A DNA stretch of 20,000 nucleotides from IMG/VR virus record IMGVR_UViG_3300046507_000471. One strand, 5' to 3'. Origin of the DNA: an uncultured virus (IMG/VR IMGVR_UViG_3300046507_000471). Taxonomy: Duplodnaviria > Heunggongvirae > Uroviricota > Caudoviricetes. Of this stretch, positions 1,943 through 18,568 are shown piece after piece; the first letter of the stretch is position 1; the number at the start of each line of letters is the position of its first letter. A program made the position numbers and the translations under genes. The notes beneath the pieces were generated by a model that was not told where the DNA came from, did no database searches, and worked only from the letters and a program-made list of their open reading frames with translations.

Positions 1943-3307
1943 TTAGAGATTTACTCGGTCAAGGTCCCCATCAGAAAACCCATTGTAAACTGGGAATCTG
2001 ATTTGACCACCTGGAACGCTAGGAGGATACGCTTTTACTTGAATTAGCTTCTCATTAAACATGGCTGGATTCTTCCAGGCTTGGATTCTAGTGTCTCTAT
2101 CAAACCCAGTTCCAACCTTTCCTACCATACGTCCTGAGGCATCAGCCAAAATCAATGCACCCATACTATCTTTTGGGTTGCCCTTGATGTCGATTTCTTG
2201 TTGCTGGCCAATAACCTTCAGATTATACGTTACGTAGTTCTTTACTTTGTATCGTACTGATTCTGTCTCAGGCTTAGCGTAGTCCGCAACTATTAAGCCT
2301 TCGCCTTTCTGGCTCTTGATAGTATCTAGGTATTTGTTGATCGCATCTACCCCGTACTCTAAGTGAGGTGCAAACATCAAATCAGAATTTCCGTAGTCCT
2401 TTTCGAACTTTTGAAGATACTCAACTTTATCTTTGTATGTTGCGAGATTCGGATTCTTAACGTCAATTAGCACAGCACGTACTGGGCCTTTCTCAGCTTG
2501 AGTTGCAATAGATCTCGGAGGTAGAGAATTAAGAATACCTGAAACTGTAGGGTGCGACTCGGTTTCAGACTTTGCAAGTCCGGTGTGTACAAGCTCTACC
2601 GCAAACTGGTTACCAACGTATTCTGGCATTGGTTTAGCCAGATGTGGAAGCTGTGCTGAACGCTCTGGGAATCCACCTTTTACACTTGGCCTACGTGAAT
2701 GGTAAGTTAAAGAGCCATCAGGCTGTACGGTAAGCACAAAGTGGGCCCCGTCCCATTTCTTTGATGCAACTGGATGTTCGAGTGCTGTCCAATCGCCTTC
2801 TACGTATTTGTGTCTGACGTATGTGTCGATTGAAGCTTGCTTCTGAATTTGACTAAGGTACGGATTGATACCTTCTACAAACAACTGACTCCCCAAAGGA
2901 CCAATACCTCTGAAGGACTGAATCTCAGCACGAATTTCTTCAGGAGTATGATTATCTATCAGATTATTAATAGTCCCGTACTTCTCTCTCAGGTGTTTGG
3001 CCTGAGCAAGCATCGTAGTAGCTGTTGACTCATCGAAACGTCCGTAATGGCCTTGAACTAATGCATCACGTAGATTTTCCCAGCCTGCAGACTCAACAGC
3101 TTCCGGGGAATAAAACCCCTTCGAAGCCATGTGTTTAGCAGCTAAAGATGCGACTGAACGTTGAATAGGCCTAGAGAAAAGAGTGACGGCTGTCATCCAC
3201 TTGTACAGTTCTTTCTCATCACCTTTTGACAAGTCAAAGCCTAGACTTTCCGGACTTGCCGGTTCTTTAAGCTGAGCTGCCATTTTCTCTAGGTACTTGT
3301 TAGTCAT
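1943..3307 (-). CDS. Fusion: NKYLEKMA tag + HhH-GPD/glycosylase-like domain + ATP-dependent DNA ligase (454 aa)
   Basis: Ligase motifs: I KKWDG, III AVELV, IIIa VLIDV, IV EGLIV, V YKVK, OB-fold KVGTGFD, VI IRFPVY. The N-terminal ~150 aa (LGFDL..ELYKW..GHYGRFDESTA..FRGIGP) match small bacterial HhH-superfamily proteins. QKQAS lies between the domains (2831-2845). Confidence 0.9.
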   Translation of the reverse strand: MTNKYLEKMAAQLKEPASPESLGFDLSKGDEKELYKWMTAVTLFSRPIQRSVASLAAKHMASKGFYSPEAVESAGWENLRDALVQGHYGRFDESTATTMLAQAKHLREKYGTINNLIDNHTPEEIRAEIQSFRGIGPLGSQLFVEGINPYLSQIQKQASIDTYVRHKYVEGDWTALEHPVASKKWDGAHFVLTVQPDGSLTYHSRRPSVKGGFPERSAQLPHLAKPMPEYVGNQFAVELVHTGLAKSETESHPTVSGILNSLPPRSIATQAEKGPVRAVLIDVKNPNLATYKDKVEYLQKFEKDYGNSDLMFAPHLEYGVDAINKYLDTIKSQKGEGLIVADYAKPETESVRYKVKNYVTYNLKVIGQQQEIDIKGNPKDSMGALILADASGRMVGKVGTGFDRDTRIQAWKNPAMFNEKLIQVKAYPPSVPGGQIRFPVYNGFSDGDLDRVNL

Positions 3308-5234
3308 TTTTCATTAGTCCTTTTACTTCATCAAACAGTTCTTCTTTAGTATCTGAATTCTCTGACAAATACTTATCAATCGAATACGGAGTCTTGCCCC
3401 ACATAGGCTTCGGATGTACGCTGTGGAAATGCTCGACTAGCACATTGCGCTCCGCTTCTGGCAGATGTTCGTGTGAACCAAATCGTACAGCACGCCCAAC
3501 TACCTGGTTGATTTTACTGGGGTTGAAGTGAGGTTCTAGCACTTGCACTCGCTTTGTCCCCTTGGAATCCAACCCCTCTGAACCTGAAGATGAAATCAGC
3601 AGAACCTTCTTCTTACCTGAGTTGTATTCTTTGACCAAGTGATCCTTCTCTGCTCTTGACAGTGACCCATCATAGATAGCATGGTCAATCTTGGCTTCTT
3701 TCAGTTTTCTAGAATAGTCTCGCAGGCCAGCATCGAGGTAGTTCGAATATACAAGTGCCTTGAAGTTCTTATCCTCTGCCATACCCTTCTGTAAGCTCTC
3801 TACGGCCTTCAGGATCTTAGGTGAGTACTCAGCCTTACCGTCTAACGTCAAGTGCCTGTGACCGTTAGAAACCTGTCTTACGCCAGCAGAGAATGAATTA
3901 AGACTTGCCATTTCTTTCTTGTCCATAGGCATATTGTGCCTCAATTTCATCCGTAATAGAAATGGTAATTTCCCTTCAGCAAACTTGTAATACTTCTGCT
4001 GTTCCTTAGACATTTCCACTTCTACTATCTTTTCAGTCTTCTTCGGGAAGTGCTTTGCAGCTGCAGGGTCATCCTGACTGTCATAGAAACTTACGTATTG
4101 ATTGAGAATTTCCTTAAGCTCTTTCCTACGGTCGAGTCTACGCACTGCTTCAGGCTTGGCTCCAAGAAGTCTATCTTTGAAACCTGGCTTAATGATTTCT
4201 TCTTTCGTGTAACGATCTTCCATCTTCTTGGCTTCTTCCGGAAGAACATTATCATTTGCAGCAATGTTTACAAGAGCTGATATATCAGAGAGCTTATTGT
4301 AATTGCCAGTAGCAGTTGCAAGTAAACGACGATCAGCACCGCTGATAATGTCTCGGAGTTCTCTAGTACGTTTAGTGTTCGTGTTACGGAGCCTGTGAGC
4401 TTCGTCAGCAACTGCGATGGAGTAATCATTTTTACGTAGTTTGTGTGCATCGTTAACAGCTTTTTCGTAGGACATTACATCCAGTCGATTTCTGTCCAAG
4501 TTAATCTTGTGCTTCTTAAGTTCTTTATCAACGTTCGTGACGAGACTGGCAGGAGCAATGACCAGCGCCCTCTTTTTAGGGTACTGTTCTTGATACTTCT
4601 GTACTGCCTTAAGAAACGTCTTTGTCTTGCCGCTGCCAAGGCTGTGATGAAGGACAACGCCTTTTTCTTTATCCAAATGGTCAAGAGCGTCAATTTGGTG
4701 AGGCTGTAGGTCACTTTTCTGTTCCTGTTTCTTCTTGGCAATCTTTTCTAGATATACGTTACCACCAGCATAATCGTCAAGCGCCCAAGCCTTCTTTTCG
4801 AGAGAAGTCTTACGTGTGAGATATGGACTTTGACTCTTACCCATTCCGGTAATGTTTCGAAATATCCAAGAAGTAGGGGCATCTTTCGTAGGGGACTTCT
4901 TCAACAAAAACTTCTCACCGTCTTTGGTGAAGATTACCAGCATAGTCTCTGTGCTGTGTGGTGCTACAATCGCCTTACGAACCCAATCTAGATACGTAGT
5001 TCCAGCGCCATATTGGCCTTTTGGAATTACAACCTTTTTACTCAATGCGTATGCACGGTCATGGACCGGCTGTTCAAATACGCCAATGATTTCACCCGGC
5101 TTTGGCATATCTTTAAGCGTTGCAAAAGAATAAGCTTTGTCTCCATGAACAAGTCTTAGATCGTAGTGAGTGCCCATTACGTCGGCTTCGTGCCGCTGAC
5201 GGGTGAAGAGGAATTCGTCGTTTGGTTGTAACAT
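3300..5234 (-). CDS. Fusion: LigD-type 3'-phosphoesterase (PE) domain + SNF2-family (D6/D11-like) helicase/ATPase (644 aa)
   Basis: PE signature QRHEA..THYDLRL..SFA..PVHDRAY..IPKGQYGAGT. SF2 motifs LQPHQ, HSLGSGKT, VIAPASL, DEAHRLRN, ATAT, LVYS, SGSEGLD, QVVGRAVRFGSH. The linker contains NVYLEKIA. Confidence 0.92.
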   Translation of the reverse strand: MLQPNDEFLFTRQRHEADVMGTHYDLRLVHGDKAYSFATLKDMPKPGEIIGVFEQPVHDRAYALSKKVVIPKGQYGAGTTYLDWVRKAIVAPHSTETMLVIFTKDGEKFLLKKSPTKDAPTSWIFRNITGMGKSQSPYLTRKTSLEKKAWALDDYAGGNVYLEKIAKKKQEQKSDLQPHQIDALDHLDKEKGVVLHHSLGSGKTKTFLKAVQKYQEQYPKKRALVIAPASLVTNVDKELKKHKINLDRNRLDVMSYEKAVNDAHKLRKNDYSIAVADEAHRLRNTNTKRTRELRDIISGADRRLLATATGNYNKLSDISALVNIAANDNVLPEEAKKMEDRYTKEEIIKPGFKDRLLGAKPEAVRRLDRRKELKEILNQYVSFYDSQDDPAAAKHFPKKTEKIVEVEMSKEQQKYYKFAEGKLPFLLRMKLRHNMPMDKKEMASLNSFSAGVRQVSNGHRHLTLDGKAEYSPKILKAVESLQKGMAEDKNFKALVYSNYLDAGLRDYSRKLKEAKIDHAIYDGSLSRAEKDHLVKEYNSGKKKVLLISSSGSEGLDSKGTKRVQVLEPHFNPSKINQVVGRAVRFGSHEHLPEAERNVLVEHFHSVHPKPMWGKTPYSIDKYLSENSDTKEELFDEVKGLMKND

Positions 5235-5260: not shown

Positions 5261-5296
5261 AAAAAAAGCCTAGACACATTATAACATGTCTAAGCT
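5261..5296 (-). terminator. Intrinsic terminator downstream of 5307..6446, with TGTTATAAT in its loop region
   Basis: Minus-strand RNA AGCUUAGACAUG-UUAUAA-UGUGUCUAGGCU followed by a U run, starting about 10 nt after the stop codon. Confidence 0.75.
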
Positions 5297-5306
5297 ATTT
5301 TAAAAC

Positions 5307-7605: not shown

Positions 7606-7632
7606 CTTATACCAAGGTTATAGCTAAAATAG
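7606..7632. promoter_or_regulatory. Divergent promoter region: TTGGTATAAG (minus, 7606-7615) and TAAAATAG (plus, 7625-7632)
   Basis: Both motifs recur upstream of other genes in the window and here sit back to back between divergent genes. Confidence 0.55.
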
Positions 7633-7657: not shown

Positions 7658-9484
7658 ATGTCAGAAAAATACACAACAGCCGGGGCACTAAAGCTAAAAA
7701 GCGAACTGCCAACCAAAGAAGCTAGAGACAACTACGACCTATATAGGCCTCTAGATAAGAAAGGTATTTCAGATCTAGTAAATGTGCTTCTGAAACACGG
7801 TGGCGAAAATAGTCACGAGGTTATTAATGATCTCGGCAAGAAGTTCTTTAACAAGGCTACTGAAATTGGCGCTACTACACCGTTAACTGACTACATTAAC
7901 GAAAGCGACGACAGACAAGCTATTATCGATGAATTTGAAACAAAGGTTCATCAAATTTTTGCAAAGAAACTTCCGAAAACTAAAGAAAATGATGAGCTTG
8001 GTGCATTGACCGGGGAATACAACGGTAAGATAGAAAAGCAAAATCTGGAACATCTTTTGTCCAAAGGATCGACTGCAGCCAAGATGGCTCGTACAGGCGC
8101 TCGTGGTAATCCTACACAGCTTGCTACTGGTACTTCAACGCCGCTAATGTCAATTAACTTGAAGGGCGAGCTAGTCCCATACGTAATTAAGTCATCATTT
8201 GCAAAAGGCATGTCTCCTGCTGAGATGCTCGCAATGAGTTACATGGGAAGAGGTAGTACTGTGCTTTCACAGCTTTCAACTGCGCTTCCAGGTGCTCTGT
8301 TCAAGGAACTTTCCCCAACGGTATTCCACGAAACTATCACGATTGATGACTGCGGAACTACCAATGGTATTCTGCTTCCCATCGTTGATAAGAAGGGTGC
8401 TGTTGGAAGATACGAGGCAGGTACAAATCATCTCATCGATGAAGCCTATTATAAGGAACTGGTTAGCTCAGGTCATAAAAACATAAAGGTTCGCAGCGCA
8501 CTTACATGTGAAGCTCACCAAGGTGTTTGCAAGAAATGTTATGGTCTAATGGGAAATGGTAAGCCAGCTGAGATAGGTGAAAATGTGGGCGTAATCGCTG
8601 CCCAATCTGTTTCTGAAGTTCTGACTCAGTCAATGCTTTCAACGAAGCACAAGGCATCAGTTGGTGCTCGTAAGGGTAACTCATACGAACAGGCTTCAAA
8701 CCTGCTCCGTAACCCAGCTGAGAACTTTAAAGATGAAGCCACGATTACTGGTATCAATGGCGTAGTTTCAGCAATTAAGCAAACGCCTCTTGGTGACCAT
8801 CAGGTATTTGTTAATGAACAAATGCACTTCGTCCCACGAGTTCAAAATCTTAAAGTAGCTGTTGGGGACAACGTTCTTAAGGGCGATACTCTTTCAACTG
8901 GAGTTGTAAATCCACGTAAGTTAGTTGCATTGAAAGGCCTTGGTGCCGGTCGCATTCACATGGCCCACGAACTTCGTGGTATCTATGGTTCTGACCTTGA
9001 TCCCCGTCACTTCGAAATGATTGCTAAGAATCTTATTAAGCACGTAGAAGTTCAAGATCCAGGTGAGACAGGCTTTCTACCGGGCCAGAAGGTTGATGTA
9101 AACACTATTCAAAAATACCTGACAAATACGGCTGGTGAAGTGCCTCTTGAAAAGGCTGAAGGTAAGTTACTCGCAAAGGGTGTGTTAGAACTTACAGCAG
9201 GTACTCTTCTTGATGGCAACCACATCAATGAACTTAAGGGTCACGGCGTTAAGACAGTTCACGTAGCTAATACTGGACTCACAGTAACTCCGATCGTTCC
9301 AGGTCTTAAGACAGCCAAGCTACTTGATGAAAACTGGGTTTCAAAGCTTTCCTTCTCAGGTCTTAAGAATACAATTCGTGAAAGTGCTGCAGTAGGTGCT
9401 GAATCAGACGTACACAGTACAGAGCCTATCACTCCGTACATTCTCGGTAGTGAATTCGGTGAAGGTCCTGGAGGACAGTATTAA
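7658..9484 (+). CDS. Phage multisubunit RNA polymerase beta' subunit, C-terminal half (608 aa)
   Basis: RpoC motifs: MARTGARGN; IKSSFAKGM plus bridge helix (..STALPGALFKEL); ITIDDCGT; Zn site VRSALTC..GVCKKCYG; trigger-loop region GENVGVIAAQSVSEVLTQSMLSTKH; RHFEMI; WVSKLSF. Confidence 0.95.
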   Translation: MSEKYTTAGALKLKSELPTKEARDNYDLYRPLDKKGISDLVNVLLKHGGENSHEVINDLGKKFFNKATEIGATTPLTDYINESDDRQAIIDEFETKVHQIFAKKLPKTKENDELGALTGEYNGKIEKQNLEHLLSKGSTAAKMARTGARGNPTQLATGTSTPLMSINLKGELVPYVIKSSFAKGMSPAEMLAMSYMGRGSTVLSQLSTALPGALFKELSPTVFHETITIDDCGTTNGILLPIVDKKGAVGRYEAGTNHLIDEAYYKELVSSGHKNIKVRSALTCEAHQGVCKKCYGLMGNGKPAEIGENVGVIAAQSVSEVLTQSMLSTKHKASVGARKGNSYEQASNLLRNPAENFKDEATITGINGVVSAIKQTPLGDHQVFVNEQMHFVPRVQNLKVAVGDNVLKGDTLSTGVVNPRKLVALKGLGAGRIHMAHELRGIYGSDLDPRHFEMIAKNLIKHVEVQDPGETGFLPGQKVDVNTIQKYLTNTAGEVPLEKAEGKLLAKGVLELTAGTLLDGNHINELKGHGVKTVHVANTGLTVTPIVPGLKTAKLLDENWVSKLSFSGLKNTIRESAAVGAESDVHSTEPITPYILGSEFGEGPGGQY

Positions 9485-13018: not shown

Positions 13019-13189
13019 ATGAATAAGTATCTAGAAAAAATCGCATCAAAGAAGAAGAGTGGTCAGCTTACTATGCGTGCTGGTCAAAAGCCTATTAAGC
13101 ACCCTAAGAAGCCTTTTGTCTCCTTGTCTGCCAAGGTTAAAATAAAGTCACAGAAACATGGAGCCAAAAATGGCAAACGTAACCCCTGA
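13019..13189 (+). CDS. Tagged, highly basic 56-aa peptide (MNKYLEKIASKKKSGQLTMRAGQKPIKHPKKPFVSLSAKVKIKSQKHGAKNGKRNP); not in ORF track
   Basis: Begins with the exact MNKYLEKIAS tag, 2 nt after the upstream stop, and fills the apparent intergenic gap. Confidence 0.85.
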   Translation: MNKYLEKIASKKKSGQLTMRAGQKPIKHPKKPFVSLSAKVKIKSQKHGAKNGKRNP

Positions 13190-14252
13190 ACTTCTTCGGG
13201 ATATCTCAGTTCAAGCAGTTGAAGATTTCCTGAATAACAAAGTTCCTCTGAGCAAAGGTCTAGCTAAACAAGCAGCCGCTTATGAACTGAATGTAGAACA
13301 AGTAAAGCGGGCAGTAGAATCAACGAATAATATTGCTTATTTGAAAATTCTTCAGCACGCAGAAGATCGTACAGTAGAATTCCCACTAGCTAAGTTTGCA
13401 GAAGTTATGTCAGCCGCTACTATTCCTGATAATTTCCAGGAGAAGGTTGCCCAAGTAACTACCGAAGAACTGAAGGCAGAACTAGAAAAAGAAGCATCGG
13501 CAACAGACCTTCAATTGGTCGAAGCAGAACAGCTTACATACCTCATCAAGTCGGCTTCAGCTAACAAAGAAGCTCTTGAACGTATTGAAATGGATAGTAT
13601 TGTAGTAGCGGATATGCTTGTGAAGGCCGCAAAGGCTCTTGGTAAGGATGACGCTTGGATGGATAAGCTGGCATGTGTCACGGATGAGAAGACCTTCTCA
13701 GAGCTTTCTATCCTCGTTTCTGGCGAGGTTAAGGGATACCGTGAACTTGGAGAGCTTGGACTGTTTAAAGTTGCACAACTTAAAGAAGCTACTGGATTTG
13801 CAGAACTGTACAAACAGGCTCGTGCACTGGTCCGTGAACAACGTGAACGTTCAGAGCTTCAGAAACGTGCAGCAGATGCTGCTCAAGGTGTAAAATCTAA
13901 TATCTTCAATAAGGCGATGCAAGGTGGTGCTAAGTCTGCAATGAATGCAGCTCAAAAAGCAAACCCTGCTTATGTAGCTGGTAAGGCTATTGGTGTTGCA
14001 GCGTCTACACCATTCAGAGCAGCGGCAGCAGCTGGAAAGGCAATTAACAACTCTGTTAAGAATAACATTGCAGCTCTAGGTAAGCCAACAGCTAAGAACA
14101 CAGCAAAGGCTATCGGTAGAACTTCAGCAAGCGCTGTATCGGGTGTTATCAGAGCAGGTGGCCCAGTTTTAGATGCAGCATTCTACGATCCAGGCACAGA
14201 TAAAACAACTGGAAGAAGTAACGATGTCTGGAGCGCTCTCCAGCGTGATTAA
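13170..14252 (+). CDS. Hypothetical Ala/Lys-rich helical, probable head core protein
   Basis: GGAG at 13160-13163 favours ATG 13170 over 13158. Many K-x-A motifs (AKQAA, EKVAQ, EKEAS, IKSAS, DKLAC, YKQAR, QKRAA). Confidence 0.75.
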   Translation: MANVTPELLRDISVQAVEDFLNNKVPLSKGLAKQAAAYELNVEQVKRAVESTNNIAYLKILQHAEDRTVEFPLAKFAEVMSAATIPDNFQEKVAQVTTEELKAELEKEASATDLQLVEAEQLTYLIKSASANKEALERIEMDSIVVADMLVKAAKALGKDDAWMDKLACVTDEKTFSELSILVSGEVKGYRELGELGLFKVAQLKEATGFAELYKQARALVREQRERSELQKRAADAAQGVKSNIFNKAMQGGAKSAMNAAQKANPAYVAGKAIGVAASTPFRAAAAAGKAINNSVKNNIAALGKPTAKNTAKAIGRTSASAVSGVIRAGGPVLDAAFYDPGTDKTTGRSNDVWSALQRD

Positions 14253-14809: not shown

Positions 14810-15592
14810 ATGAATAAGTATTTAGAAAAAATAGCCGCTGATAAAGAGCATTTTTCTAAAAAGCAGAAAACAGCAGCTGGTGGTGGAGCTGCTGTTCTCG
14901 GTGCGTCTGTAGTTAATAAGCAGTACCACGGTGGCCATATAACTGGCCGTGAGACTCTTTACCACGGAACCTCTGCTGCTAATAAAGAACAAATTCTTAA
15001 AGACGGTCTTAAACCAAGAGCGAAGAAAGGTATTATCGATATCGCTCAAGATGCGACAGGCCAAAATTTAAAGTCAGACAACTTAACGTTTATGACTAGA
15101 AGTAAAATGCAAGCACACAGCTATGCGAATCAAGCATCACGTATTGAGAATGGTACTTTTAACATACACGATATGGTGGGACGTCTTAAAGATGCTATTC
15201 CTGGTAAAGAAAGTTCTAAGGGTGTAATTAATATCAACGCTCCTACTTGGAAAAAAGACGAATTTCGTAAGGTACGGAACCCTGAAGTAAAAACAAGTTT
15301 CAAAACGGTAAACGAAGACGCCTTCTCTCCCAAGTTTGCAAAAACTCAACAGAAGCGCACTATATACTCAACACTTGAAAAAGAAGTCTTTACCAATAAA
15401 GGCAACGTTTCAAACAAGTATATGGAGGGTTCTAAGGCGTATCAGAAGAATTCTCTTGGTGAAATTAGAGAATTTGCGAAAGCGAATACTAAACGTTTCT
15501 TGAAGGGTACTGGTAAGGCTGCAATGGGCGCTGCAATGATCGGTGGAGGTTTAGCCTACGCCGCTAACCAATTTAAAAAACATGGAAAATAA
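14810..15592 (+). CDS. Tagged protein with an ADP-ribosyltransferase/Tpt1-like fold motif (260 aa)
   Basis: MNKYLEKIAA start; LYHGTS..EQILKDGLKP followed by TFMT...AHSYA, the pattern seen in H-type ART-fold and KptA-like domains. Confidence 0.6.
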   Translation: MNKYLEKIAADKEHFSKKQKTAAGGGAAVLGASVVNKQYHGGHITGRETLYHGTSAANKEQILKDGLKPRAKKGIIDIAQDATGQNLKSDNLTFMTRSKMQAHSYANQASRIENGTFNIHDMVGRLKDAIPGKESSKGVININAPTWKKDEFRKVRNPEVKTSFKTVNEDAFSPKFAKTQQKRTIYSTLEKEVFTNKGNVSNKYMEGSKAYQKNSLGEIREFAKANTKRFLKGTGKAAMGAAMIGGGLAYAANQFKKHGK

Positions 15593-16136: not shown

Positions 16137-17651
16137 ATGCTAACAAAACTAATCGATACGTCTTCTTTTTACCGTGACGAACCACAGGTAACTATTCTCG
16201 ATCCTAAGGATCTTACAGGCAGTCTTATCAAACAGGCTACGGATTCTCGCATCCAAGAATTCGCTTCCAAAATTACCCCAGTACAGGGTAAGACGTATCT
16301 TCACATTCTTGCTATGGGCGCAGGAGAGTATTACGGTGCCAATCGTAATGCCGACTACTTTCCAGAAAGCAACCTCATTGATTATCACAATACCTTTGAG
16401 ACGGCTCCTGCCCATATTTTCCGTAACCACGTAAACAAAAATCCAGAAATCGCCATAGGTCAAGTTGTGTACTCTGTCTATAACGATAGAATGCACCGTG
16501 TTGAACTTATCGCTGAACTATGGAATGACAAAGCCCCTGACATCGTTGATCGTATCGAGAGCGGGGACTGGCCTAAGACTTCAATGGCTTGCCGTACTCC
16601 ATTCGACGTATGCTCTATTTGCGGTAACAAGGCAAAGACTCGTGAACAGTATTGTGAACACTTGAGCGAACAGCTTGGTAAGGTATTCCCTGATGGTCGT
16701 AAGGTCATGGCTCTAAACCTGGCTCCATTACGATTTTTCGACATTTCTATTGTGTTTCGTCCAGCTGACGTAACTAGCGCCGTTCTACAAAAAATAGCAT
16801 CTGAAAGCGCAGTTGTTGGATCTGTTGATGAAGCACTCATGGCTGGTCTTAACGATCTGCCTCTTCAAAAGAGCGCTACTCTCAAAAAGCTTTCAGAATT
16901 AACGAAGGAGATTGACGGCGATGTTGTATCTATCGATCCTAGTCTTGATAATCTTGTATCACGAGTTAGTGATCCGCAAGGTGACGTCATTGACGTTCTC
17001 CGAAATTATAAGCTTAATGAAACTTTTAGTACCTTTGCTCATCTTGGTATTAGCCCTTCGATTGGTTTTCTTGCTGAACTAATTGGACGTAAACTAATGG
17101 GTGAAGAGGGACGTGGTATTGGCCCAATGGCTGCTGCGTACTTTGACCGTGCTGGTATTAGCTCACTCCCCGAATTCGACCGTGATTTTGGCGAAATAAC
17201 AGAACCAAATATCGGTATCGTTCACGCTATGCTTCCTCATATGCAGGATTCCTCGTATCTACCTCAGTATGTGGAAGAGCGTGTATCGTTGAACAAACAA
17301 GCTTCGACTTATGGATTTATGCAAGGAACTAATGTAGGTTATGTAGGCAATGGCCCACACATTGAACCTACTATGTATGAGAAGTTCCGTGAACAAAACC
17401 TGAAGTCAGAAGAAGAGAACAAGTCAGGTCTAATGAAGGTTCTTTCTGCCATTGCTGCCATCGGTGGCGCTGCCCTCGCAGCAAAGTGGTATATTACGCA
17501 AGTTATCGAACGTAAAATGAAAGAACAAGAATTGAACAAGACTTCAGATGGTGTTAAAATAGTTTTAGTTAAATCTGCTTCTGACTATAAGCTAACTTAC
17601 AAACTCGCAAAAACAGCGATGCTTAAGTTGGTTCAGAAGAAAAAGAATTGA
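16137..17651 (+). CDS. Prohead (maturation) protease, HK97/assemblin-like fold with Zn-finger insert and long C-terminal extension (504 aa)
   Basis: Ordered motifs NRNADYF, IFRNH (His), TSMAC (Ser) and FFDISIVFRPAD (cf. EISxVxxPA); Cys/His cluster CSIC..YCEHL; located just before the scaffold-like gene. Confidence 0.75.
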   Translation: MLTKLIDTSSFYRDEPQVTILDPKDLTGSLIKQATDSRIQEFASKITPVQGKTYLHILAMGAGEYYGANRNADYFPESNLIDYHNTFETAPAHIFRNHVNKNPEIAIGQVVYSVYNDRMHRVELIAELWNDKAPDIVDRIESGDWPKTSMACRTPFDVCSICGNKAKTREQYCEHLSEQLGKVFPDGRKVMALNLAPLRFFDISIVFRPADVTSAVLQKIASESAVVGSVDEALMAGLNDLPLQKSATLKKLSELTKEIDGDVVSIDPSLDNLVSRVSDPQGDVIDVLRNYKLNETFSTFAHLGISPSIGFLAELIGRKLMGEEGRGIGPMAAAYFDRAGISSLPEFDRDFGEITEPNIGIVHAMLPHMQDSSYLPQYVEERVSLNKQASTYGFMQGTNVGYVGNGPHIEPTMYEKFREQNLKSEEENKSGLMKVLSAIAAIGGAALAAKWYITQVIERKMKEQELNKTSDGVKIVLVKSASDYKLTYKLAKTAMLKLVQKKKN

Positions 17652-17707: not shown

Positions 17708-18568
17708 ATGATGAGTTTCACTCTAGACGGTCTTCTTAAAGATCTGGAAACTGAAGCTGGTCTACATAAAGTAGCTAGTGAAGATACAGAGAAAGAAGAA
17801 AAGAAAGATGAAGATAAGGCTGAAAAGGCTATCGACAAAGCTGACAAAGATGTAAAGGAAGCTAAGGAAGAAGTCAAGGACGCTAAAGAGAAGAACGATG
17901 CTGATGAACGTGTCAAAGAAGCTGCGGCTAAAGGCGCTGACTTAGCAAAAGAAGTAATGCAAAAAGTTGCATCCATTAAACTTGATCAAGTAAAACCAGA
18001 GGATACTATGAACAAACAAGCTGCTGACGCAGGCAAGGCACTAGCCGAAGCTCTTCTTGAGAAGCTGGCTTCAGTAGGTGACCAAAATACCATGAATGGT
18101 ATTGGCAATGCTGTACCCAACAAGACTCAAATTGATCTTGCAGCTCAAGTAGCTGAACAAGATGCTGTCATTCAGAACCAACCCGGCACAGACGGTAAGG
18201 GCAATGGCGGTACTATCAACCAAATTTTCGACGCAATCGTTGCTGACGCAATGGCTCGCGGCGCTGCTCCCGTTGATCAAAACCCTGCTCCTGGCGTTGC
18301 TAAAGACGAAGGCGCTATCAATGATCAAGCTCCTAACCAAGTTCAAACTGGTGGTTGGGTAACGGCTGGCCAAGAAAAGGCTGCTGCAGTTTCAGAACTC
18401 GTAGGCCAAGGCTTCGACTTCGAAGACGCAGTAAACATGGTCAAGGAAGCTGCTGCTGAGATCGAACGTGAAGAAGCTTCACAAATTAAGCAAGCTGCTC
18501 TTTCGCACTTCATCGGTGCTGGTTTCGATTTTGAAACGGCAGTAAACTTGGTAAAAAAGCTGGGCTAA
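17708..18568 (+). CDS. Probable scaffold/core protein, short form (286 aa)
   Basis: AAGGA SD; acidic, charged and Ala-rich; follows the protease; repeated KVAS/KQAA/KLAS; two C-terminal GFDFExAVNxV repeats. Confidence 0.7.
   Translation: MMSFTLDGLLKDLETEAGLHKVASEDTEKEEKKDEDKAEKAIDKADKDVKEAKEEVKDAKEKNDADERVKEAAAKGADLAKEVMQKVASIKLDQVKPEDTMNKQAADAGKALAEALLEKLASVGDQNTMNGIGNAVPNKTQIDLAAQVAEQDAVIQNQPGTDGKGNGGTINQIFDAIVADAMARGAAPVDQNPAPGVAKDEGAINDQAPNQVQTGGWVTAGQEKAAAVSELVGQGFDFEDAVNMVKEAAAEIEREEASQIKQAALSHFIGAGFDFETAVNLVKKLG

Follow-up and report, generated by a model that had tools for sequence, protein, structure and literature searches.

Two overlapping minus-strand genes at positions 1943–5234 of a 20,000-nucleotide stretch of DNA from an uncultured virus of the Caudoviricetes (IMG/VR record IMGVR_UViG_3300046507_000471; this whole stretch is hereafter called the window) encode a cassette of four modules: a LigD-type 3'-phosphoesterase (PE) and an SNF2-family ATPase in gene 1, and a helix-hairpin-helix (HhH) domain and an ATP-dependent DNA ligase in gene 2. 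Judged from sequence, all four modules probably bear the putative head-cargo signal of this phage group, an eight-residue amphipathic peptide, N-K-Y-L-E-K-[IVM]-A (hereafter the tag). The reading we favour, to which we give a probability of about one half, is that these enzymes are cargo, loaded into the head and probably separated from one another by the head protease, and that they would heal and seal nicks in the phage DNA as it enters the cell.

In this scheme, the cassette proteins would be produced together with the structural genes, and the peptide would direct them to the head during its assembly. Cleavage by the head protease at or near the joints between modules, which carry a K-x-A motif, would free the modules, and these would exit the capsid together with the DNA and the virion RNA polymerase. 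Once in the cell, the PE would convert 3'-phosphate or 3'-ribonucleotide ends to 3'-OH, the ligase would seal the nick, and the SNF2 motor would track along the incoming DNA or clear it.

The window belongs to a viral contig of 56.8 kb with an estimated completeness of 32%. Among deposited phages, the closest is Salmonella phage Arash (180.8 kb; 40% identical in the SNF2 protein and 44% in the head protease), and close uncultured relatives at 81–92% identity include one complete 181-kb genome with direct terminal repeats (G001). A megablast search with the cassette returned no match among deposited phages.

Gene 1 encodes a 3'-phosphoesterase fused to an SNF2 ATPase

An initial annotation of the window had proposed two overlapping genes encoding a LigD 3'-phosphoesterase, an SNF2 ATPase, a glycosylase-like HhH domain and an ATP-dependent ligase. 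The gene structure was borne out, with open reading frames (ORFs) of 644 and 454 amino acids sharing 8 nucleotides at 3300–3307, and so were all the domain assignments except for the function of the HhH domain.

As a single sequence, the PE domain scores just below the Pfam threshold (30.4 versus 31.1 bits). A profile built from 25 homologues matched the archaeal PE structure 3p43 in the Protein Data Bank (PDB) with an expectation value (E) of 3.8e-10, covering positions 4–126 and thus the whole domain, with further matches to 3p4h (7.9e-7), 5dmp (1.4e-6) and the Pseudomonas LigD PE 3n9b (1.3e-3), and PF13298 was found in 77 of 80 short PE homologues. Across the 25 aligned sequences His23, Asp25, Arg27, His58 and Tyr62 are invariant and His15 is nearly so, and in the alignment with 3p43 and 3p4h the conserved residues fall on the H..H.D.R and H...Y positions. 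These six residues (His, His, Asp, Arg, His, Tyr) are what we take to be the essential set in Pseudomonas LigD. The catalytic motifs are intact, and metal-dependent 3'-phosphatase and 3'-ribonucleoside resection activity is predicted from them. The domain lies outside the standard LigD context, where ligase and Prim-Pol share one polypeptide with the PE and Ku is the partner; here it is fused to SNF2 instead. A tblastn search of 50,697 deposited phage genomes, Arash included, found no homologue of the PE.

The linker that follows the PE carries LEKKA at residues 145–149 and a variant of the tag, NVYLEKIA, at residues 159–166. Beyond it, the SNF2 ATPase exceeds the Pfam cut-offs for both SNF2-rel_dom (9.6e-20, 71.3 bits) and Helicase_C (3.3e-15, 56.7 bits) and displays the expected motifs: GSGKT at residues 200–204, DEAH at 277–280, and QVVGRAVRFG at 577–586 as motif VI (Q..GR..R.G). 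Its best PDB matches are of the Rad54/ISWI type (1z63, 3.6e-11), and the identity to Arash gp217 extends over residues 176–644. A further homologue, from Pseudanabaena phage PA-SR01 (locus L002, 8575–10371, plus strand), has an N-terminus that looks twin-arginine-like by eye.

Gene 2 encodes a tagged HhH-fold domain and a minimal ligase

Gene 2 opens with the tag itself, modelled as an amphipathic helix at residues 4–12 or 4–13 in two AlphaFold models. The HhH domain that follows belongs to a family of 369 members, mostly 140–250 residues long, with no Pfam model. Built with the family alignment, its model has a mean predicted local distance difference test (pLDDT) score of 95.5, and all 50 Foldseek matches listed are HhH-GPD glycosylases, matched weakly (E 4.7e-3 to 0.19; TMq 0.44–0.58). 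The family profile matches EndoIII in the PDB at 3e-3, and Pfam detects Ogg-HhH in 4 of 50 family members and HHH_5 in 6 of 50. HhH-GPD glycosylases have a Gly/Pro-rich loop and a catalytic aspartate about 20 residues after the hairpin, and those with lyase activity use a hairpin lysine. Here the hairpin G-I-G lies at residues 134–136, followed by Pro-Leu, with no lysine in the hairpin; the domain ends 15–20 residues past it, and no conserved aspartate column was found there among 50 family members. For these reasons we read the domain as a DNA-binding module and not as an active glycosylase, so that the glycosylase-like assignment of the initial annotation stands at the level of the fold, and its suggestion of base excision does not. 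Asp161, in the sequence SIDTY, was considered as the missing catalytic aspartate and rejected, as the position varies (D/E-x in relatives) and belongs to the joint.

Between the two well-folded domains of gene 2, the only low-confidence stretch is at residues 152–156 (pLDDT <50), next to and overlapping the joint motif QKQAS. The ligase itself is modelled with pLDDT >90 over residues 166–454 as a nucleotidyltransferase domain and an oligonucleotide-binding fold. It matches PHROG 114, 'ATP-dependent DNA ligase', at 7.7e-18, and its structural neighbours in Foldseek include Lig E (6gdr, TMt 0.74) and the Chlorella virus ligase (2q2t, TMt 0.64), with E down to 1.9e-16. Lys184 of motif I, Asp186, Gly187, Glu238, Glu336, Gly337 and Lys354 are invariant in 37 sequences, which covers motif I, with its adenylated lysine, and motifs III–V, and the EGLIV and RYKVK motifs could be located. 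Pfam gave no match to PF01068, and only DNA_ligase_OB_2 below its cut-off (16.5 bits). On the model, the ligase is of the minimal nick-sealing type. No Arash match to the window ligase was found with tblastn. In G001, the tagged ligase is the only DNA-ligase-like gene found, and no NAD ligase was found; a PF01068 scan of that genome missed the tagged ligase and found instead a Pnkp-like RNA repair gene. This gene, near 162 kb (L133, 1602–4022, minus strand), encodes an 806-residue enzyme with kinase, metallophosphoesterase and PNKP-ligase parts (PNKP_ligase 2.3e-27).

The tag is concentrated at the cassette and the head genes

The tag that the initial annotation had noticed is real. Within the window, it follows the start codons of the ligase gene and of five head-module ORFs, at 13019, 14810, 15582, 18946 and 19361, and one more tagged ORF begins at 20450, just outside the window. 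Back-translated, the pattern has seven DNA matches in the window, the variant in the PE–SNF2 linker among them, against 0.01 expected, a number reached in none of 200 shuffles. Synonymous positions of the tag codons vary, so the peptide is what selection acts on; an element of gene starts that works at the DNA or RNA level was considered as an alternative and rejected on this ground, and because the peptide also occurs inside ORFs and at their ends.

Across IMG/VR, the pattern is present in 116 stretches. In the 80 loci that were fetched from these, we counted 96 distinct instances, 83 of which have a start codon one to three codons upstream; a few of the remaining matches are chance occurrences in unrelated proteins. 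In G001, every one of the seven exact tags falls in the stretch from 30.5 to 53.5 kb, close to the cassette and the head genes, and a reversed control pattern gave none. The tag also forms the C-terminal end of many PE proteins that stand alone, and of a stand-alone module termed X (L084), and it is found at internal joints (L070, L021 and L078). Many tagged proteins continue with glycine-rich, hydrophobic stretches. A literature search found no paper containing the peptide.

K-x-A motifs mark the head module, the head protease and the module joints

The core of the tag belongs to a wider pattern. In 16 head-module proteins, [EQ]-K-x-A-[SA] occurs 19 times against 0.8 expected (reached in 0 of 200 shuffles), and in the ligase protein twice (EKMAA and QKQAS) against 0.1 expected, compared with one occurrence in the other 63 ORFs, where 0.8 is expected. 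Controls in the head module gave three matches for the reversed motif and none with arginine in place of lysine. The capsid protein carries a related sequence, TKEAS, at residues 27–31.

The candidate head maturation protease has the motif at its own domain borders: across 22 homologues of 34–94% identity, Lys32/Ala34 and Lys219/Ala221 are invariant and flank the catalytic domain, with further K-x-A sites in homologues at about residue 251, about residue 380 and the C-terminus. A search of the PDB with the protease sequence gave no match. Within the catalytic domain there is also an invariant, zinc-ribbon-like C-x2-C ... C-x-H cluster (Cys159, Cys162, Cys173 and His175), and His98, His120 and Ser149 are invariant too. 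Of 63 distinct related loci, 49 show enrichment of the strict motif in the surroundings of the protease gene, and only 13 contain the full tag. In the Arash head module, a looser form, K.A[SA], occurs 23 times against 4.3 expected, and it is absent from 11 neighbouring proteins.

The same core sits between the modules of fusion proteins. Motifs had been claimed at both domain junctions of the cassette, and LEKKA, NVYLEKIA and QKQAS are indeed placed there; among 25 related fusion proteins, which were hand-picked as multi-module and many of which are related to one another, K-x-A is present at 31 of 32 joints. At short joints the count is 26 of 27, compared with 9.3 ± 2.3 after shuffling, and the motif is about seven times denser in joints than within domains. 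In the ligase alignment, all 18 fused forms carry K-x-A, and in 16 of the 18 it lies three to six residues ahead of the start of the stand-alone ligase. An ORF made up of several modules that fold independently and meet at a conserved motif has the design of a viral polyprotein, and proteolytic release is predicted from it.

Modules are shuffled among relatives

The association of these modules, first seen in the window, recurs in relatives. Among the matches listed, the PE is fused to SNF2 in 41 of 120 homologues, down to 47% identity, and for this reason the idea that the fusion is one recent accident was rejected, even though the two are split in L005–L008. In these four loci PE and SNF2 are separate genes, and the SNF2 protein begins MNKYLEKIA at the position of the window linker. 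Other architectures are PE-ligase (P0034, P0076 and P0115), tag-SNF2-ligase (P0065), PE-SNF2-ligase (P0389 and P0391), tag-HhH-X-ligase (P0003) and tag-X-GNAT-ligase (P0011). Close relatives differ among themselves: L003 has an extra tagged ORF of 128 residues, and genes are split or fused in L003–L008.

Module X is about 120 residues long, has no Pfam match, and is placed between tag and ligase or between PE and SNF2 (P0012, P0013, P0015, P0386, P0379 and P0397); the stand-alone form with the C-terminal tag is encoded at 1476–1934 of L084 on the minus strand. The separate PE gene of L006–L008 (10001–11269, plus strand) has an extra C-terminal part of about 290 residues with no Pfam match.

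Virion proteins of a relative and the missing end-joining parts

Evidence from virions comes from Arash. In liquid chromatography–mass spectrometry of its particles, as listed in Table 2 of PMC10585845, the SNF2 homologue Gp217, named a 'DNA helicase', is abundant, with 100% coverage, 38 unique peptides and 1148 spectra; for the RNA polymerase subunit beta' (Gp216), 40 peptides and 1210 spectra were recorded, and beta (Gp206) headed the list.

Neither Ku nor a LigD Prim-Pol domain was found in the contig or in G001, which extends to both what the initial annotation had noted for the window. A Ku-dependent end-joining system was rejected on this account, and end-joining of double-strand breaks is unlikely for the same reason. 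The initial annotation had also offered the repair of restriction or CRISPR cuts and the circularisation of the genome as roles. Both are weakened, and they are the weakest parts of that annotation's reading, because Ku and Prim-Pol are missing, the ligase is a minimal nick-sealing one, and the ends of G001 are direct terminal repeats and not cohesive ends. Healing of nicks with 3'-phosphate or 3'-ribonucleotide ends, followed by sealing, fits the predicted parts best.

Organisation of the window

The coordinates of the cassette and of the tagged and head-related genes are collected in Table 1.

Table 1. Features of the cassette and the neighbouring head module, in window numbering
Feature	Position	Strand	Evidence or remark
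Gene 2, 454 residues: tag, HhH-fold domain, joint, ATP-dependent DNA ligase	1943..3307	−	ORF, PHROG 114, alignment, AlphaFold
Minimal ATP-dependent DNA ligase (predicted), residues 165–450; motif I KKWDG at 2747–2761	1958..2815	−	
Joint motif QKQAS, residues 155–159	2831..2845	−	3–4 residues before stand-alone ligase start (alignment)
HhH-GPD-fold domain, residues 19–150; hairpin FRGIGPLGSQ at 2885–2914	2858..3253	−	Family profile, AlphaFold, Foldseek
N-terminal tag NKYLEKMA, residues 3–10	3278..3301	−	Pattern search; short helix in models
Gene 1, 644 residues: PE domain, tagged linker, SNF2 ATPase	3300..5234	−	ORF, Pfam, PHROG 62 at 3.6e-45
SNF2-family ATPase, residues 176–640; GSGKT at 4623–4637, DEAH at 4395–4406	3315..4709	−	Pfam, PDB 1z63
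PE–SNF2 linker, residues 131–175, with LEKKA (4788–4802) and internal tag NVYLEKIA (4737–4760)	4710..4844	−	
LigD-type 3'-phosphoesterase domain, residues 6–130	4845..5219	−	Profile versus PDB 3p43, conserved residues, PF13298 in homologues
Promoter-like motif TAAAATA (5296–5302), then 13-bp hairpin and T-run (5267–5296), upstream of gene 1	5267..5302	−	
Tagged, very basic ORF, 56 residues	13019..13189	+	Conserved in L027, L057 and L080
Tagged protein, 260 residues	14810..15592	+	
Tagged glycine-rich protein, 176 residues	15582..16112	+	
Candidate head maturation protease, 504 residues, K-x-A at own domain borders	16137..17651	+	phrog_18299 1.2e-7, phrog_2774 2e-17
Acidic scaffold-like protein, 286 residues, several K-x-A-[SA] motifs	17708..18568	+	
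Tagged protein, 141 residues	18946..19371	+	
Tagged glycine-rich protein, 163 residues	19361..19852	+	
Tagged protein, 85 residues, nearly all glycine-zipper-like	20450..20707 (right of window)	+	PHROG long tail/lysin proteins, ~1e-5

The cassette lies between the halves of a split gene for the beta' subunit of a multisubunit RNA polymerase, identified by Pfam at 1–1101 and 7658–9484 on the plus strand. These are 6.5 kb apart, with several small ORFs besides the cassette between them; in Arash, 4.8 kb of small genes separate gp206, annotated as the beta subunit, from the beta' gene gp216. The head module lies to the right of the cassette, and the major capsid protein is encoded just outside the window at 21265–22158 (phrog_2522, 1.7e-12).

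A copy of the motif TAAAATA, with a strong hairpin behind it, stands 68 nucleotides upstream of gene 1. The contig has 17 copies, 13 of which lie no more than 100 nucleotides upstream of a gene start on the same strand, and the genes downstream of these 13 are mostly tail, head or RNA polymerase genes. The motif upstream of the cassette fits co-expression with virion genes, and does not separate middle from late timing. The motif often reads TGT(T)AAAATA, with further examples at window positions 7625, 10303 and 16125 on the plus strand, and no copies are present in the leftmost 15 kb of the contig, which consist of small minus-strand genes.

Several of the tagged neighbours have features of their own. 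The basic ORF at 13019–13189 belongs to a family of conserved proteins of 49–56 residues, very rich in Lys and Arg, and overlaps the start of the next gene (13158–14252); it is a candidate DNA-binding internal head peptide. The 14810–15592 product gives weak ADP-ribosyltransferase (ART)-like signals: Pfam Tpt1/KptA at 0.0011, under its cut-off, Tpt1 in the PDB at 0.28, and structural neighbours in ART-fold families with TM scores of 0.33–0.40, all under the bar. If real, such an activity would parallel the packaged Alt enzyme of T4. In the related locus L021, a long minus-strand ORF (3–1886) has two tags and glycine-rich stretches, as well as, by eye, HExxH-like and J-domain-like (HPD) motifs close to the end; it seems to be a further tagged protein of several modules.

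Weighing the alternatives

The view of the cassette as a virion-delivered heal-and-seal kit, already put forward in the initial annotation, gains indirect support from the head-module-specific tag signal, the shuffling and fusion of the modules, the presence of an SNF2 homologue in Arash virions and the promoter-like motif shared with virion genes; its extensions to double-strand-break repair, circularisation and base excision are weakened. Several observations weigh against it. The virion data come from Arash only, in which Gp217 has no PE domain, tag or motif, so an SNF2 protein can enter a virion with neither, and PMC10585845 lists 116 of 272 Arash proteins as virion-associated, which is a loose net. 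The residue after K-x-A in the PE-SNF2 protein is Trp or Lys and not Ser or Ala, and the joint counts draw on the hand-picked, partly interrelated fusion proteins described above. A simple, removable N-terminal propeptide does not fit the tag, since stand-alone PE proteins and module X carry it at the C-terminus. The tagged ligase, as the only DNA-ligase-like gene found in G001, could simply be the replicative ligase, and the SNF2 part may have another role, published for phage SNF2 proteins as partners of RNA polymerase (PMC7824862).

On that last account, SNF2, with or without the fused PE, is an accessory factor of the virion RNA polymerase, co-packaged with it for RapA-like recycling or termination, and its link to PE and ligase reflects shared packaging and not a shared repair pathway. 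The position of the cassette between the beta' halves suits this account, as does Arash, where the SNF2 gene directly follows the gene for the C-terminal part of beta' and the spectral counts of the two proteins match. Iyer et al. (2021, PMC7824862) describe a Swi2/Snf2 helicase that is distributed among group 1 jumbo phages in step with their RNA polymerase subunits and propose a RapA-like role, and PDB matches of the SNF2 part include vaccinia NPH-I (3.4e-5) and RapA (~0.1). However, the NPH-I match covers only residues 542–603, and the Rad54/ISWI-type structures match better; fusions of PE-SNF2, SNF2-ligase and PE-SNF2-ligase type tie the motor to DNA-end enzymes, and the PA-SR01 homologue stands among head genes, with no polymerase gene annotated in the 19 kb examined. 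We consider this account unlikely, though not strikingly so. We think it distinctly improbable that the enzymes are never packaged and that their work in replication, recombination or repair is confined to the infected cell, the peptide and K-x-A being a flexible linker or a remnant of cassette shuffling at conserved gene starts. Packaging of the cassette proteins is a prediction, the ligase may be the only one the phage has, and tagged cassettes come and go among close relatives, as the splits and the additional ORF of L003–L008 illustrate (internal protein genes of T4 relatives are described as likewise variable in PMC9026906). Against a linker or remnant stand a peptide that is kept while its codons vary, a motif limited to the head module and cassette and kept at the borders of the protease and near the N-terminus of the capsid protein, and the retention of K-x-A at nearly all joints and its scarcity within domains. 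Finally, the peptide could be a docking signal for a target other than the capsid, such as a chaperone, a membrane site or another assembly hub, with K-x-A as a binding motif and not a cut site. The N-terminal, internal or C-terminal placement of the tag, its modelled amphipathic helix and the glycine-rich, hydrophobic continuations agree with such a signal; the confinement of exact tags to the head-gene region of G001, the abundance of the motif in acidic scaffold-like proteins and the protease, and the auto-cleavage of known head proteases at their own motif after the catalytic domain, described for SPN3US in PMC5694885, speak against it, and we rate it as very improbable.

The packaged heal-and-seal reading can be extended, tentatively and with less than even confidence, to the whole group: an uncultured clade of 130–190-kb phages may pack a modular DNA-care kit that is injected with the genome and the virion RNA polymerase, addressed by a position-independent eight-residue peptide and released by protease cuts at K-x-A joints. 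Its parts would be an enzyme that cleans 3' ends, a ligase, a DNA-binding HhH domain and an SNF2 motor, with a GNAT and further modules in relatives.

Comparison with known systems

The logic of the tag is that of the T4 capsid targeting sequence (CTS), carried by internal proteins IPI–III and Alt and removed by gp21: a short peptide common to unrelated proteins encoded near the head module. As described in PMC3012670 and PMC9026906, the CTS holds the processing site of the head protease, the cargo includes the enzyme Alt, and the cargo set differs among relatives; PMC9026906 assigns targeting to residues 4 and 7 and processing to residues 8 and 10. IPII and IPIII of T4 begin MKTYQEFIAE, which shares Met1, Tyr4, Glu6, Ile8 and Ala9 with MNKYLEKIA, a likeness that is short and could be due to chance. 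The two systems differ in that the motif here is K-x-A-[SA], compared with [LI]-x-E in T4, the tag here is also internal and C-terminal and not strictly an N-terminal propeptide, and the putative cargo, with predicted targeting and cleavage, consists of multi-module DNA-repair enzyme fusions.

The head proteases of T4, phiKZ and SPN3US cut head proteins where they meet a short motif, and they also cleave themselves beyond the catalytic domain (PMC5694885, PMC9026906). According to PMC5694885, phiKZ and SPN3US package ejection proteins, the virion RNA polymerase and many other proteins, and their prohead protease cuts at A-X-E or S-X-E, with several motifs per propeptide. The phages studied here have another, putative cleavage motif and another protease lineage, the relatives of which are Arash gp222, phage G gp19 and the proteases of cluster C mycobacteriophages, and no PE or ligase is reported among the phiKZ and SPN3US cargo in the passages of PMC5694885 consulted. 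Arash shares the protease family, the enrichment of K-x-A in the head module and the SNF2 homologue Gp217 as a virion protein.

As in bacterial LigD with Ku, an ATP-dependent ligase goes together with a PE, which has the same set of catalytic residues and is fused to the ligase in some relatives; in contrast, Ku and Prim-Pol were not found, the ligase is of the minimal Chlorella virus/Lig E type, and the PE of the window is fused to SNF2. The RNA polymerase-linked Swi2/Snf2 proteins of jumbo phages resemble the protein described here in that SNF2 lies beside the gene for the C-terminal part of beta', immediately adjacent in Arash, and on the opposite strand at a distance of 2.4 kb in the window. 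They differ in that the SNF2 protein here carries the tag and is fused to PE (and to ligase in relatives), whereas the published helicase is, by its description in PMC7824862, Rad25-related.

Implications

Phages inject RNA polymerases, anti-restriction proteins and ADP-ribosyltransferases. To our knowledge, injection of a DNA ligase or a 3'-end-healing enzyme has been shown for no phage, and no bacteriophage was described before as delivering a DNA repair system from the virion; what is new here is the cargo, together with the motif and the polyprotein design. K-x-A is a candidate cleavage rule for a widespread family of head proteases, represented among cultured phages by Arash, three Vibrio phages, phage G and the cluster C mycobacteriophages. 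The eight-residue tag, if it acts as proposed, is a candidate portable handle for loading foreign proteins into these capsids. If the enzymes do ride in the capsid, the phage would repair or protect its own DNA before any phage gene is expressed, which would add a new layer to the arms race between phages and host defence.

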